Virus record (IMG/VR): IMGVR_UViG_3300045988_110999
Direction: 5' to 3' (one strand)
Source of the DNA: a virus
DNA: 64,000 bases
In this document: positions 3,714-53,257 of the stretch, one piece after another
How the letters are laid out: each line of letters starts with the position of its first letter
Numbering within the stretch: the stretch's first letter is position 1
The notes under the pieces: generated by a model
Database searches by the model: none
Told to the model about the DNA's origin: nothing
Seen by the model: the letters and a program-made list of their open reading frames with translations, nothing else
Program-made: the position numbers and the translations under genes

Positions 3714-4046
3714 CTACACCTTTGATTCAACATCACTCCTATTCTTTGAACCGTCTACGGGCCGGGGAGGAATCGGATATTCACCGGAGGGACTGTTCTT
3801 CGTGGAATCTACCAACCATTTGAACAGACCAACCAAACCCATACCACAAGCAGAAATCCCTTGCCAGCATGAGTTAATCTCGAAATGAGTCCCCCACAGC
3901 CCATTAGACCAATAACCATATAACCAAGATAAAAGAACTACGAGAGCCGAAAAAAGCCCGAATGCCATACAGATGTACGACATATTGGACTTCATAGCTA
4001 CAAACATTTTATTTACTGTACGAGTCAACCCTTTTTTGAATATCAT
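3714..4046 (-). CDS. Holin candidate (two TM segments, several in-frame Met starts, charged C-terminus)
   Basis: 110 aa. TM segments are YICMAFGLFSALVVLLSWLYGYW and GISACGMGLVGLFKWLV. It lies directly upstream of the endolysin, and MIFKK/MFVAMK/MKSNM offer dual-start options. Confidence 0.65.
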   Translation of the reverse strand: MIFKKGLTRTVNKMFVAMKSNMSYICMAFGLFSALVVLLSWLYGYWSNGLWGTHFEINSCWQGISACGMGLVGLFKWLVDSTKNSPSGEYPIPPRPVDGSKNRSDVESKV

Positions 4047-20016: not shown

Positions 20017-20469
20017 TTATTCAATAATATACCAATCCTCAGAAAGTAAATCAGCCTGTGACGCAAGCCACCCAAGCTGCACACCAGATGTACCAACAAA
20101 AGCTATAGCTTTATTTCCCATGGATTCATGATTCACATTTACTATCTCTCCATTAGAATTAATGTAACTTACATTGTTAGCTAGTTCGATATATTGACCT
20201 TTGCCATTCCAGCATTTTCTTGCACATTTTTTACCCTGTTTAATAGCTTCAATAGCTTGGCCAATAGTCATTTCATCACTTTTAGCCGACTCATATGTTT
20301 TTTCGAAAATATCCGGTTTGCATGGATACTGTTCTCCATTTACACCAGTGATAATATAATCACCAATACTGGCTTTCATATCACCCTCAAGTGTGTGAAT
20401 AATTTTTTCTTCTTTCGTCTGATATGCTTCAATTACAACCGGTTTCTTTCTAAATTTCATAGTTATCAC
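20017..20469 (-). CDS. Two-domain protein: [10 protein letters not shown]...GDYIITG...[17 protein letters not shown]-domain fused to a DUF2829 (Tad2-like) C-domain
   Basis: The C-terminal [30 protein letters not shown]...[18 protein letters not shown] matches the DUF2829 signature (GxxxxRxxW...DLLAEDW). Confidence 0.7.
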
Positions 20470-33899: not shown

Positions 33900-33974
33900 T
33901 GGCGGCGGTACTTAGAATCGAACTAAGACTAGCAGAGTCAAAGTCTGCTGTACTGACCGTTATACGATACCGCT
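33900..33974 (-). tRNA. tRNA-Gln (anticodon UUG), CCA encoded
   Basis: Hand-folded cloverleaf. Anticodon stem GCAGA/TCTGC, loop CTTTGAC. T-arm CTTAG-TTCGATT-CTAAG. Acceptor AGCGGTA/TACCGCC with an A1xC72 mismatch. Confidence 0.75.
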
Positions 33975-33977
33975 ATG

Positions 33978-34051
33978 TGGCATGGGTACAAGGACTCGAA
34001 CCAAGATTGACGGTTTTGGAGACCGTAGTCTTTCCATTAGACGATACCCAC
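33978..34051 (-). tRNA. tRNA-Trp (anticodon CCA), CCA encoded; T-stem has two U-U mismatches
   Basis: Acceptor GTGGGTA/TACCCAT. Anticodon stem ACGGT/ACCGT, loop CTCCAAA. T-arm CTTGG-TTCGAGT-CCTTG is imperfect. Confidence 0.6.
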
Positions 34052-34052
34052 A

Positions 34053-34140
34053 TGGCAGAGGAGGTGGGATTTGAACCCACGGTGCTGCTACGCACAGCTG
34101 TTTTCAGGACAGCCACCTTAATCCACTCGGACACTCCTCT
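34053..34140 (-). tRNA. tRNA-Ser (anticodon UGA), long variable arm, CCA encoded
   Basis: Acceptor AGAGGAG/CTCCTCT. Anticodon stem GCTGT/ACAGC, loop CCTGAAA. T-arm GTGGG-TTCAAAT-CCCAC. 88 nt, type II. Confidence 0.75.
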
Positions 34141-34144
34141 AATC

Positions 34145-34218
34145 TGGTTGCGGGGGATAGAGTCGAACTATCGTAACTGGGGAATGAGCCCAGCGTCCTA
34201 CCTTTAGACGACCCCGCC
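34145..34218 (-). tRNA. tRNA-Met (anticodon CAU) with initiator-like features
   Basis: Acceptor GGCGGGG...CCCCGCAACCA with a 1x72 mismatch. GGG/CCC closes the anticodon stem, loop CTCATTC. T-arm GATAG-TTCGACT-CTATC. Confidence 0.7.
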
Positions 34219-49893: not shown

Positions 49894-51096
49894 CTATTTT
49901 ACATAAAAGCGTCTTGCGGCTTCCGACTGACGTTCTTTGGAATACGAGCTGATACGTTTCAAGTAGCCGATAACTCGTGTACCATAATCAACGTCATGAG
50001 AACCACATTCCGTGCAATGGTCTTCTGTGTTTACGTTGATATAACCACAATCATTGCAAATGGTAACTAAGCAATTATATGTCCAGTAATTTACTCCTAA
50101 TCTCCCGGCCACACAAATTAAATCATATGCCTGATTCTTGCTGAACAGCTGGGCGATGTTAAGATGACATGCGCTACCACCATCGAGGTACTTAGTGGTT
50201 TCTTTCCCATGAAGGAACAACTTATCGAGAATGGTTAAAGAATCGTTTTCAACTGGGAAGAAATAAGAGTTATAGCAGTCACGGGGTACGGACAACCCAT
50301 CATGCTTATCCCACTGAGCATTTTTAACGCCAAGGCCCTCCGCAGGCACATATTCGGTGTTAAATCGGAACCCATATACAGCCCTATCTGCCTTATTGAG
50401 GTCGTAAATAACTTTCAAGTACTTGGATACTTCTTTCTGATATGCTTCTTTATCAACTACGGGGGAGAATCCTTTATATTCCATAGCTTCAAGCATACCG
50501 TTGATACCAATAGTACCAAACTGAGTATCGAAGTTAATAAACTGAGCTGTGTAAGCCGGTAACATACCAAGCTCGATGTAATGTTTGATAACGGCTCTGT
50601 GAGCGGCAAGGTATTTATGAATACGAGAAATCAAGTCACCGAACGGTAACTTACCTTCATACTGCTGTACGTACCGGTTCATGTTGATGGTAATTACTCG
50701 GAAAGAGCCAGTTGATACACCGCCAGCCCCCAACGTGTAAGAGAAGGTATTGTCAGCCAGTTCGTTGCGGAGCCGGCAACACGATGCGAGAGAGTCAGCA
50801 CTACGAGACTCATAGATGAAGAAGGACAGGCCCTTAGACATTTCTTCGGCAAGGAACCATGCAAAGTCCTTATCTTTCGGTTTCTTATCCTCGTCCAGCA
50901 ACACGGCGGCGGTAAGTACCGGATAGGTAAGGAGTTCTTTTTTGCGCTCCATGCGGAACCATTCCATAAAGAATTCCTGTAACCGACTCAGACTCTTGTA
51001 ATCTGGTTCGGTGCCATCAGGGAAACGGAAACCGCCAAAGATACCATCAAAGTAGTATTTATCGAATACAGAGATATTCCAAAACACGGATTGATT
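49894..51096 (-). CDS. nrdD: Anaerobic ribonucleoside-triphosphate reductase, exon 2
   Basis: After splicing it begins NQSVFWNISVFDKYYFD. It ends with the Zn-ribbon CNDCGYINVNTEDHCTECGSHD and the glycyl-radical motif RVIGYLKR. Confidence 0.85.
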   Translation of the reverse strand, partial: NQSVFWNISVFDKYYFDGIFGGFRFPDGTEPDYKSLSRLQEFFMEWFRMERKKELLTYPVLTAAVLLDEDKKPKDKDFAWFLAEEMSKGLSFFIYESRSADSLASCCRLRNELADNTFSYTLGAGGVSTGSFRVITINMNRYVQQYEGKLPFGDLISRIHKYLAAHRAVIKHYIELGMLPAYTAQFINFDTQFGTIGINGMLEAMEYKGFSPVVDKEAYQKEVSKYLKVIYDLNKADRAVYGFRFNTEYVPAEGLGVKNAQWDKHDGLSVPRDCYNSYFFPVENDSLTILDKLFLHGKETTKYLDGGSACHLNIAQLFSKNQAYDLICVAGRLGVNYWTYNCLVTICNDCGYINVNTEDHCTECGSHDVDYGTRVIGYLKRISSYSKERQSEAARRFYVK

Positions 51097-51405
51097 CGAG
51101 CGCCCTATGCTTTCACATAGGCTCTGACTATCTCTTACTAACGAATGTTAGCACACCATTTCGAGGAACGTATCAATAGTTCCCCTACTCCCCCACAATA
51201 GGGGATAGTCGATACACCTTCTAAACTGTAATGTTGGCATAACTTATACCTGCCTTTATATTATATATCGTATGGTAGGTAACTCCATAAAGTTTAGCTT
51301 GGCTCGGGATTGGCATACCTGAATGGCTTTAGCTTTCCCCGACAGCCGTTGAATAATCAACGACCTCGCTGATAAACGATTAGATGTGTAGTGGCAATAT
51401 TACTT
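51097..51405 (-). ncRNA. Group I self-splicing intron (309 nt, no internal ORF) interrupting nrdD
   Basis: P1: exon GUGGU (51410-51406) pairs with intron GCCAC (51395-51391), giving U-G at the splice site. P7: GACUAUC (51210-51204) pairs with GAUAGUC (51132-51126), the latter within AAGAGAUAGUCAG, which resembles the group I S element. P8 hairpin 51151-51138. P9 hairpin 51122-51103. The terminal G is at 51097. A 3-bp P10 is possible. Confidence 0.8.
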
Positions 51406-52020
51406 ACCACGTGCCGCGGCTGGCTGGTTGAGGGCATAAACAACGCCCTGTAATTCCTGTGCGATACGGTCTTTAGCTACAGAGAGGTAATTATTCCCAT
51501 ACTGTTTACGAGCAAAATAGTCGAAGTACATAAGGAACTCTACGGTTGCCGTTGCCCCGGCCCAATTCGTAGCCAGTTGGTATACGAGATTCACAAAGGA
51601 ACCGCAGAAGGACTGGAGATTCTTAGGAGCTTTACTCGTGCCCCCTAAACACTTTGTACCATTCAGCAAAAACGGGTACATAGTAACAGAGGCGCAGTAA
51701 GGAAGAAAAGCAGCTAATGTTTCGTCATGGCAATACAGAAGATGACTTTCAATATCTTCCTCGTACTGGTCGGCTAAATCCTCTCCAAACATTTCCGTGA
51801 TTTTGTCTTTGACGATTTTACGGCTGACCTGGATGTTCTCGAACTTGTACATCTCTTCCTTGAGTGTGCCCATGTTCTTTTCGGAAACATTGGAGTTAGG
51901 GTCTACTAAGGAAGCCGAGGCGTTATTGGTGGCCCCGATATAAAAATTAATGAAATCTACCTTTTTCTGAATCTGTTCCGGTGTAAGATAGTTAAAGAAC
52001 GATTTCTTATTTGTCATCAA
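51406..52020 (-). CDS. nrdD: Anaerobic ribonucleoside-triphosphate reductase, exon 1
   Basis: 205 codons ending ...VVYALNQPAAARG at the proposed 5' splice site. The unspliced frame stops 2 codons later. Confidence 0.85.
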
Positions 52021-52280
52021 AGAGCCTCCTCAACAAAATCTTTTAATACTTCCGGAGGGATAACCCCTTCAATCCGGCTAATCTCTTTGTCGTCATCATA
52101 GACAACAACTGTAGGGTAAATGTGCAGATTGTATTTTTTCTCCATTAGGGAGGATTCTACCCTTTTATTCTCAAAATCAATCTCATTTTTATACTTTTCA
52201 GCCAGCTCTTTAAATGTGCCACTGATTCGATTGCAATGGAAGCAGTTGTCGATATAGAACTTACAGATTTTCTTACTCAT
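52017..52280 (-). CDS. Thioredoxin/glutaredoxin-like redoxin (CxxC)
   Basis: ATG at 52280. KFYIDNCFHCNRI...YPTVVVYD shows a thioredoxin fold with an active-site CFHC. It lies between nrdG and nrdD. Confidence 0.7.
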   Translation of the reverse strand: MSKKICKFYIDNCFHCNRISGTFKELAEKYKNEIDFENKRVESSLMEKKYNLHIYPTVVVYDDDKEISRIEGVIPPEVLKDFVEEAL

Positions 52281-52791
52281 CGCTATCACCCCTTTGGAAA
52301 TACTCTTTAGTCTTGTCTTCCCACGTCTGGTAAACAGGGTTAAATTCGTAGAACCGCTGATTGGTCGTCGGAGAATCAAGACCACCTTTATCTCTTTCGT
52401 ATCTGCCAGCCTTTATCCATTTAATCGGTAGCCTAGGGAGGACTCCCAAACCATCATCGCCAACATAAATACCAACCTGGAACATACACGATAGGTCCAA
52501 TAAAAGAAGTTCTAATGCAGTTCTAGATACCCCTTCATTATTCCAGCCACCCATAATGACGACGGCGTTTGCCCCAAGCTTATATTGCTCATGAACATAA
52601 TCAATCATTTCTTGGGCTGTCATATTCGGCCGGGTGTGGTTTGTATCCCAAAGCTCCGGACTGTGACATCCTTCGCAATGGCAGGTACAGTTACCTATTT
52701 CAAAAAACACAGAGATACGATTAGGTATCTCTATAAGGGTAATTCCTTTATTTACAACGGGAAATTTATCATCATATTCTAAATCAGCCAT
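52273..52791 (-). CDS. nrdG: Anaerobic RNR activating enzyme (radical SAM)
   Basis: ATG at 52791 after GGAGG. It has the Cys cluster GNCTCHCEGCHSPELW and lies adjacent to nrdD. Confidence 0.7.
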   Translation of the reverse strand: MADLEYDDKFPVVNKGITLIEIPNRISVFFEIGNCTCHCEGCHSPELWDTNHTRPNMTAQEMIDYVHEQYKLGANAVVIMGGWNNEGVSRTALELLLLDLSCMFQVGIYVGDDGLGVLPRLPIKWIKAGRYERDKGGLDSPTTNQRFYEFNPVYQTWEDKTKEYFQRGDSDE

Positions 52792-53257
52792 TGAAAAACT
52801 CCTCCATTTTCTTTTTATTTTCAACATACTTGTTACATTCTTTTCGGAAAGCTTTGTATTGTTCGATGAGTTTTTTCTTGCCTTTACGGGCCTCTTCACG
52901 AGTCCGGAAGAAGTTACTGCTTAGGCTTTGTTTAAAGCTTTGGACACTACCAAAGATAGCACTCTCTTCCGTGTGGTTAGGAAGAGGAATGTACCAATAT
53001 CGTTCCCCGACCCGAGGTTTGAATGTTTCCTTCTTCGCTTCCGGTTCGGTATCTTTGTCGATATAATATTCGCCATCCAGCAGTTTCAACAGTACATTTT
53101 TAGAGACATCGTTATTAGAGGCATTTCGCAGACCCTTATCAGGGTCGAAAAAGAAGAATCCCACGAGGTCGTTTCCGTTATTAAAATGACGGACAGCAAA
53201 CGGTTTATTGAATTCCATATCGAAAATTCGTGCAATATCAGGAGCATACAACATCAT
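52784..53257 (-). CDS. Hypothetical protein
   Basis: 157-aa ORF in operon context. Confidence 0.55.
   Translation of the reverse strand: MMLYAPDIARIFDMEFNKPFAVRHFNNGNDLVGFFFFDPDKGLRNASNNDVSKNVLLKLLDGEYYIDKDTEPEAKKETFKPRVGERYWYIPLPNHTEESAIFGSVQSFKQSLSSNFFRTREEARKGKKKLIEQYKAFRKECNKYVENKKKMEEFFNG

Follow-up and report, generated by a model that had tools for sequence, protein, structure and literature searches.

The nrdD gene, which encodes the class III ribonucleotide reductase (RNR) NrdD, is interrupted by 309 nucleotides (nt) in a 64,000-nt stretch of viral DNA, IMG/VR record IMGVR_UViG_3300045988_110999 (hereafter the window, meaning the whole stretch). The interrupting sequence is very probably a phage-type group I intron that derives, by deletion, from an intron with a GIY-YIG endonuclease gene, and that is excised from the NrdD mRNA. 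The split in the gene, the reading frame restored by exact excision, membership in a family of phage introns, a covarying fold and a remnant of the endonuclease gene are directly established; GTP-dependent self-splicing with ligation of the exons is predicted from the sequence. An earlier reading of the same DNA (the original prediction) had proposed a group I intron at this position, and that assignment is supported by covariation across the intron family, by matches to profiles built without this site, and by alleles in which the site is empty.

The split in nrdD

The gene lies on the minus strand in two pieces separated by the 309-nt spacer:

51406..52017, minus strand: nrdD exon 1; 204 codons, with the ATG at 52017; matches positions 7-154 of the Pfam NRDD profile (E 1.3e-30)
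51400..51402, minus strand: in-frame UAA, the second codon of the intron, which terminates exon-1 translation ahead of the ribozyme core
51097..51405, minus strand: the interval assigned as a group I intron; 309 nt, IA-type, phase 0
49894..51096, minus strand: nrdD exon 2; 400 codons plus stop; matches positions 156-560 of the Pfam NRDD profile (E 3.9e-55)

What happens to the reading frame when the spacer is removed? Exon 1 ends with the codons GCA CGT GGT, exon 2 begins with AAT CAA TCC, and the frame of exon 2 is in a different register from that of exon 1. Continuing the exon-1 frame into the gap gives AAG and then TAA, which is the stop two codons in that had been predicted. Because none of the three frames is free of stops across the gap (51405-51097), an intein was rejected as an explanation for it. 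Excising the 309 nt yields an NrdD of 604 amino acids (aa) that matches 13 uninterrupted 604-aa homologues with 93-95% identity and 100% coverage, such that the class III RNR segment is rejoined in frame, as claimed, and matches its homologues at full length. The insertion is in phase 0, between Gly204 and Asn205. The original prediction had named homologues lacking the junction residues as evidence that would count against it; these residues (NQPA.ARG joined to NQSVFWNISV) are invariant in a 12-sequence NrdD alignment, and the sequence of the crystallized Thermotoga (T. maritima) NrdD aligns continuously across the junction.

Alleles without the intron define its limits. The intron-less alleles L004-L007 have ~86% DNA identity to the window on both flanks and lack exactly 309 nt, meaning that the coordinates given for the gap are correct and mark exactly the extra DNA. 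For L004, the identity is 85.7% in exon 1 and 86.1% in exon 2. A further contig, L169 (P0137), also has an empty site; at 78-86% identity to the window it was rejected as an isogenic intron-less phage and is usable only as an empty site. The intron-less site reads ...GCACGGGGCAATCAGAGC..., and DNA alignment allows three boundaries there because of a 2-nt AA overlap. The boundary at 51405/51097 was chosen because it is the only one that obeys the rule of U at position -1 and a terminal G. Intron-bearing alleles (the window, L098 and L039) have GGT at the 5′ splice site, and the intron-less L004-L007 and L169 have GGC; this contrast fits either selection to keep the U.G pair or endonuclease resistance of the empty sites. 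A megablast search with the nrdD region found no match among GenBank phages, and the exon-2 product (P0026) has no contigs on record.

Intron family and fold

The interval belongs to a large family of phage introns. Distant blastn matches fall in unannotated stretches of Lactococcus phages (AM1 and its relatives) and of Enterococcus phages EF1, EF5 and VRE9_3, in each case directly 3′ of an endonuclease-sized open reading frame (ORF) within a split gene. A four-way alignment has the invariant core UGUAUCGACUAUC .. GAGUA .. CUAUUGAUACG .. GAAAUGG .. AAGAGAUAGUCAG, and between these blocks are hairpins that differ in sequence and retain their pairing. The core, searched as DNA (TGTATCGACTATC..GAGTA..TATTGATACG), is shared by at least 120 IMG/VR contigs and by 39 further stretches of GTDB genomes, mostly gut and rumen contigs of metagenome-assembled genomes. 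Among the matches listed there are 125 occurrences of the motif, ~100 of which have a recognizable 5′ half upstream; of the latter, ~18 are compact and ~80 have an insert of 0.7-1.1 kilobases (kb). The motif occurs once in the 64-kb window. The nhmmer leave-out profiles, for which 58 family members from other sites were used and this nrdD site was excluded, have one match each in the window, at 51410-51292 (E 3.3e-11) and 51216-51113 (E 1.2e-23). The interval is thus more than a chance match, because the profiles match only there.

Within nrdD, the family interrupts at least five positions in the loci that were fetched: ~residue 154, 204, ~320-325, ~402 and ~510 in window numbering. The residue-204 site is used exactly in L039 and L098, and at the same or an adjacent codon in L115, L020 and L027, whose NrdDs are only 27-29% identical to that of the window. 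Another contig, L129, is 100% identical to the window. Phage nrdD loci bearing the family include L008, L009, L012, L020, L021, L024, L027, L033, L042, L045, L080, L106 and L115, and single nrdD genes in L021, L027 and L009 hold at least two copies. A 931-aa NrdD (P0014), 95% identical to that of the window, carries an intein (Pfam LAGLIDADG_3 and Intein_splicing) between the cysteines of ...SLASC and CRLRNE; the equivalent site in the window is between Cys310 and Cys311, at ~50776-50781 on the minus strand. Genomes of the same nrdD lineage therefore differ, some having the intron and some an intein, which is further support for nrdD as a hotspot for both kinds of element.

The fold was assessed with 60 distinct “mini-introns” from the family. 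The interior of P6a was removed, the sequences were aligned with plain MAFFT, the helices of the window were projected onto the alignment, and pairs were counted. There were two controls, one with 200 shuffles and one in which the 3′ partners were slid by 1-2 columns. A second, by-reference alignment of 17 full-length compact introns was scored with count_structure_pairs against a 64-pair structure that includes the P7 pseudoknot. The elements of the fold are listed below in 5′ to 3′ order, with figures from the 60 introns:

51391..51410, minus strand: P1; exon GUGGU and intron AA paired with guide UUGCCAC, with a U51406.G wobble at the 5′ splice site
51383..51388, minus strand: 5′ strand of P3, CACAUC; partner at 51152-51157; 90% paired, 25 pair types, shuffle maximum 0.68
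51366..51379, minus strand: P3.1 (provisional name), UCGUU-UAUC-AGCGA; 93% paired, shuffle maximum 0.79
51344..51365, minus strand: P3.2 (provisional name), GGUCGUUGA-UUAU-UCAACGGCU; 96% paired, shuffle maximum 0.74
51304..51342, minus strand: P4, UCGGGG/UCCCGA, enclosing P5/P5a; 98% paired, shuffle maximum 0.93
51217..51302, minus strand: P6, CC at 51301-51302 with GG at 51217-51218, and P6a, CUAAAC at 51292-51297 with GUUUAG at 51221-51226
51205..51210, minus strand: 5′ strand of P7, GACUAU; pairs with 51126-51131, forming a pseudoknot with P3
51191..51204, minus strand: P7.1 hairpin, CCCC-UAUUGU-GGGG; a closing hairpin in 60/60 relatives
51163..51185, minus strand: P7.2 hairpin, GGGGAAC-UAUUGAUAC-GUUCCUC, with an invariant loop; 98% paired, 29 pair types, shuffle maximum 0.71
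51152..51157, minus strand: 3′ strand of P3, GGUGUG; covaries with 51383-51388
51138..51151, minus strand: P8 hairpin, CUAAC-AUUC-GUUAG; compensatory changes in AM1, EF1, VRE9_3 and L039
51126..51137, minus strand: J8/7 and the 3′ strand of P7, UAAGAG-AUAGUC; AUAGUC invariant; S-like element AAGAGAUAGUCAG
51097..51124, minus strand: P9.0 (GAG at 51122-51124 with CUC at 51098-51100), P9 (CCUAUGU-GAAA-GCAUAGG, 51104-51121) and the terminal G at 51097

P1 is paired in 0.76 of cases (shuffle maximum 0.69), with U.G at the aligned splice-site position in 53 of the 60 relatives. P6 is paired in all (shuffle maximum 0.86), P4 switches from G-C to A-U in 25/60, and P7.1 has a mean stability of -5.6 kcal/mol, compared with -1.6 for shuffled sequences. 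Complementarity for P9.0 followed by G is found in 29/60 relatives, where 6.4 would be expected, and involves nine triplet types (GAG/CUC in the window, GUG/CAC and GUA/UAC in other members). Sliding the 3′ partners reduces most helices to 0.2-0.6, with P6 at 0.90 for a shift of +1. In the 17 compact introns, the 64-pair structure has 78.4% of cells paired, against 64.8 ± 0.9 for shuffles (0/500), and a covariation of 0.414, against 0.174 (0/500); with slid partners, 38-45% are paired. Individually, P4 is 100% paired in this set, P7.2 96.6% (6/7 pairs changed on both sides), P3.2 91.5%, P9.0 90.2%, and P3.1 84.7% (4/5 pairs changed on both sides). The minimum free energy structure computed for the window sequence by itself contains P1, P3, P3.1, P3.2, P4, P7.2, P8 and P9 (z = -2.8), and all the family-invariant core blocks are intact in the window.

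The helices named in the original prediction (P1 as GUGGU/GCCAC with U-G at the splice site, the P8 and P9 hairpins, and a terminal G) are all present. The seven-pair P7 proposed there, within an S-like element, is partly retained: six pairs, GACUAU/AUAGUC, are invariant in 60/60 relatives and lie in AAGAGAUAGUCAG, and the seventh, C-G, is found in only 20/60. P7 would be the guanosine-binding helix. The presence of P7.1 and P7.2 between P7 and the 3′ strand of P3 is the hallmark of subgroup IA, and by this feature the layout of the intron is IA-type.

How would splicing proceed? Transcription of nrdD would continue through the intron, and ribosomes translating exon 1 would halt at the UAA, two codons in. 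The RNA would fold into P1, P3 and the two extra hairpins, P4-P6, P7 with P7.1 and P7.2, P8, and P9.0/P9. P7 would bind an external guanosine, which would attack after U51406, held as U.G by the guide GCCAC. The terminal G51097, placed by P9.0 (GAG/CUC) and a weak P10 of 3 base pairs (bp), would take over the guanosine position, and exon 1 would then attack the 3′ splice site to give ...CGU GGU joined to AAU CAA... and hence the 604-aa NrdD. The predicted ligated junction is ...GCACGTGGT joined to AATCAATCCGTG.

The core is unusual in two respects. First, the canonical order has optional hairpins P2 and P2.1 ahead of P3; here, the 5′ strand of P3 comes immediately after P1, and two hairpins (51344-51379) come between P3 and J3/4 with P4. 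P3.1 is among the recognized optional pairings (PMC3873408), and this was its sole mention found in a literature search, which did not find a published pair of P3.1 and P3.2 hairpins. Second, J3/4 (51343-51347) is CUGUC in the window and CCAUC in L039, as compared to CUAAC in 57/60 family members, and P6 is flipped in the lineage that occupies this nrdD site (C-G/C-G versus G-C/G-C in most relatives). J3/4 is said, following work by Michel et al. in 1990, to form base triples with P6. The joint change is suggestive of possibly coupled triples, as seen in a single lineage.

It is conceivable, as a tentative idea, that the family represents a structurally distinct and unmodelled branch of phage IA introns, characterized by an ORF in P6a, two hairpins that separate P3 from J3/4, and the invariant loop UAUUGAUAC of P7.2. 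If this is true, introns of the branch are being systematically overlooked in the annotation of phages and prophages, and the paired change in J3/4 and P6 could serve as a natural test of the base triples.

The endonuclease remnant and rival explanations

IMG/VR contig L039, from an uncultured phage, has a 906-nt intron at the identical nrdD site, in a gene whose product is 58% identical to the NrdD of the window. The insertion point is shared, with exon 1 ending in ...GCACGTGGT, the intron running from AAGTAATATTGCCAC to CTCG, and exon 2 resuming with AATCA. The two introns share 92% identity over the first 121 nt and 86% over the last 203 nt, with nt 107-309 of the window intron aligned to nt 704-906 of the L039 intron. 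L039 shares the departure of J3/4 from CUAAC and the flipped P6, and keeps P8 by compensatory changes. Its P6a loop contains an intact 216-aa ORF, which scores 33.1 bits against GIY-YIG PF01541 (cut-off 22.6) and has a C-terminal helix-turn-helix. The window intron has lost ~0.6 kb of this ORF and retains only its end:

51224..51298, minus strand: GIY-YIG endonuclease remnant; the last 25 codons plus stop, within a 31-aa mini-ORF at 51221-51316

The end of the mini-ORF, AKLYGVTYHTIYNIKAGISYANITV, is identical to the C-terminus of the L039 endonuclease at 23 of 25 residues (tblastn E 6e-9) and is the only significant match to that endonuclease in the 64-kb window, such that tblastn found no second copy of an L039-type endonuclease there. 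Furthermore, the additional ~65 nt in P6 of the window align with the end of the L039 ORF, and the deletion endpoints lie within a short imperfect repeat, AAACUNUAYGG, at the 5′ strand of P6a and near the end of the ORF. The window intron derives by deletion from a mobile intron whose P6a contained a GIY-YIG gene. The absence of a homing-endonuclease ORF, as originally described, is correct for an intact gene and incorrect for an intron wholly free of coding sequence, given the 25 remaining codons.

A third contig, L098, matches the window at 98% identity in NrdD exon 1; its P6a is closed by a short loop, and its intron totals ~252 nt. One intron at one site is thus seen in three states: intact (L039), with a remnant (the window), and fully trimmed (L098). 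The three contigs are a snapshot of the homing-endonuclease life cycle in a single intron lineage. With only the last 25 endonuclease codons left, the window intron is unable to home alone. Introns that lack an ORF can be mobilized by endonucleases acting in trans (PMC3984707).

The intron is poorly handled by the Rfam group I model. At gathering thresholds, a scan of the whole window finds four tRNAs only and leaves the interval unmatched, and the E-value mode over the whole window does not list a group I match to the interval. A focused scan of 701 nt gives a full-length match to RF00028 with 30.1 bits (gathering score 50; E 1e-5), in an alignment that deletes P8 and puts the 3′ strand of P3 inside P8. 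This placement of the P3 strand (CAUUCGUUA), with its deletion of P8, was rejected: the stretch is the covarying P8 hairpin, and the true P3 is CACAUC/GGUGUG. Hence, the Rfam search that had been proposed as a check on the prediction fails when taken alone, with a score below threshold and two helices misplaced. For annotation, the consequence is that nrdD is called as two truncated NrdD ORFs and a standard Rfam scan leaves the intron unflagged.

Several observations weigh against an actively spliced intron. The RF00028 match is below its gathering score and vanishes in whole-window scans; the gathering score is a detection threshold and no biological criterion. P7 contributes no covariation information, because its pairs are invariant. 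P10 is just 3 bp. In the 17 compact introns, P1, P7.1, P8 and P9 are 44-66% paired on the plain MAFFT alignment, which loses register where helix lengths vary. The deviant J3/4 could weaken the core, although it is accompanied by the flipped P6 in the same lineage.

The most probable of the rival explanations is a splicing-dead relic, in which nrdD is a pseudogene or decaying and the core has been damaged by the same decay that removed the endonuclease gene. The endonuclease gene is clearly degenerate, J3/4 is off the family consensus, and the Rfam score is under threshold, all as this explanation would have it. It is nonetheless very unlikely. Relative to the intron-less L004, the ratio of nonsynonymous to synonymous substitution rates (dN/dS) amounts to 0.015 in exon 1 and 0.059 in exon 2 (0.04 overall), indicating strong purifying selection on both exons. 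Every invariant core block is intact, and the split allele recurs, with the exon-1 product falling in a cluster (90% identity) whose 23 sequences are spread over many contigs. Moreover, the deviant J3/4 and flipped P6 are common to L039 and L098, and are thus a trait of the lineage rather than a fresh lesion.

Could the two ORFs be translated apart and assemble into an active NrdD without splicing? Split, non-spliced RNR genes do exist in phages (PMC3653736); for example, the nrdA gene of Aeromonas phage Aeh1 is split by mobE, and the separate halves are reported to form an active enzyme (cited in PMC3653736). A GTG at 51087, three codons into exon 2, is a possible start. There is no Shine-Dalgarno-like sequence ahead of this GTG, however, and all homologues are continuous through the invariant block in which the break lies. 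The intervening ribozyme fold is conserved and covarying, with exact splice-site features, making separate translation highly improbable. An insertion of some other type (miniature transposon, group II intron or assembly artefact) whose length is a multiple of 3 by chance is effectively refuted already. It has the sub-threshold Rfam score in its favour and nothing further. Against it, L098 and L039 are independent contigs with the same element at the same site, and L129 matches the window at 100% identity. The boundaries show no transposon-like terminal repeats or target duplication (judged from the sequence and allele alignment, with no repeat search made), and the core has homologues among the introns that cultured Lactococcus and Enterococcus phages carry in gyrase and other genes. 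The reading favoured here remains that of a group I intron excised from a gene in use.

A member of the exon-1 cluster, RefSeq WP_014016880.1, is a 205-aa Megasphaera elsdenii protein annotated as “anaerobic ribonucleoside-triphosphate reductase” and encoded on a 2.48-Mb contig. Such an entry points to a related prophage and to Megasphaera as the likely host, and suggests that the split gene has been recorded there as a truncated protein. GTDB representative genomes contain no exact match to a 25-mer from the intron.

The region upstream of nrdD (52017-52899, minus strand) begins with a thioredoxin gene, whose stop overlaps the nrdD start as ATGA. Upstream of this gene is a Fer4_12 radical-SAM-like ORF, which is probably the NrdG activase, and the gene order is the same in intron-less relatives. 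Elsewhere in the window, the four tRNA genes are clustered at 33903-34218 on the minus strand (47.8-56.9 bits; gathering score 29), and there is a sub-threshold, full-length match to the DUF805 RNA motif (RF03081) at 20280-20344 on the minus strand, with 37.1 bits against a gathering score of 51.1 (E 0.004). A DUF805 protein is encoded near a helicase gene in the related contig L169.

Comparison with known phage introns

The original prediction drew a parallel with the sunY intron of phage T4. The parallel is valid in that T4 also has a group I intron in nrdD, and the insertion lies in the same conserved segment; it does not extend to the same site or to homology, as judged by insertion sites, profiles and BLASTP. 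The T4 junction is ...AFQAYE followed by YEVNTL..., in phase 1 of codon Tyr180, as confirmed by a 100% match to PDB 1H78. This corresponds to ~143/144 of the Pfam NRDD profile, and the window site to 154/155, equivalent to T4 Gly190 and Gln191, which places the T4 insertion ~10 codons upstream. T4 sunY, annotated as group IA, shares the IA layout (P7, P7.1, AGUA, P7.2, GAAA, the 3′ strand of P3, P8 and AAGAUAUAGUC) and also has an endonuclease of the GIY-YIG class, I-TevII. It differs in its length of 1033 nt, in having its ORF 3′ of P9 rather than in P6a, and in having no hairpins between P3 and J3/4. The nhmmer profiles of the family have no match in the T4 sunY region at E up to 10, and BLASTP detects no similarity between the L039 endonuclease and I-TevII. 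The window intron is outside the T4 sunY lineage, with only its general architecture in common.

The introns of Lactococcus phages AM1, P1048 and LW81 (in a gene annotated as DNA gyrase) and of Enterococcus phages EF1, EF5 and VRE9_3 belong to the same sequence family as the window intron. They share the invariant P7/P7.1/P7.2 block, GAAAUGG, AAGAGAUAGUCAG and the same P3, together with the two hairpins ahead of P4, the P4-P6 domain, and P6a as the position of the ORF. They differ in being in other host genes and in having ORFs of ~0.7 kb, and the 75-80% identity to the window is limited to the 3′ core. VRE9_3 (contig L003) also has a second, different group I intron candidate at 3774-4018 (RF00028, 31.5 bits), which overlaps an annotated HNH endonuclease gene ~0.7 kb 3′ of the family member.

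What does the window intron add to current understanding? That understanding is left unchanged. IA2 is the dominant subtype among viral group I introns (PMC11835236). nrdD is the RNR gene most frequently split in phages, and the nrdD intron of Lactococcus phage 949 is non-coding (PMC3653736). Introns of ~206 nt fragment nrdD in 95 of 104 genomes of gut Jug phages, with metatranscriptome reads in support of splicing (PMC12880540). By description, the Jug and 949 introns resemble that of the window, being short group I introns that lack an ORF and lie in nrdD of phages from gut or dairy environments; the Jug phages have jumbo genomes of 360-400 kb, whereas the window is from a contig of ~66 kb. 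Phage nrdD was therefore already known to contain small group I introns without coding sequence, and the present intron is a further example. It adds three modest points: a remnant that explains its size, a site that is not that of T4, and two hairpins after P3 that the Rfam model handles poorly.

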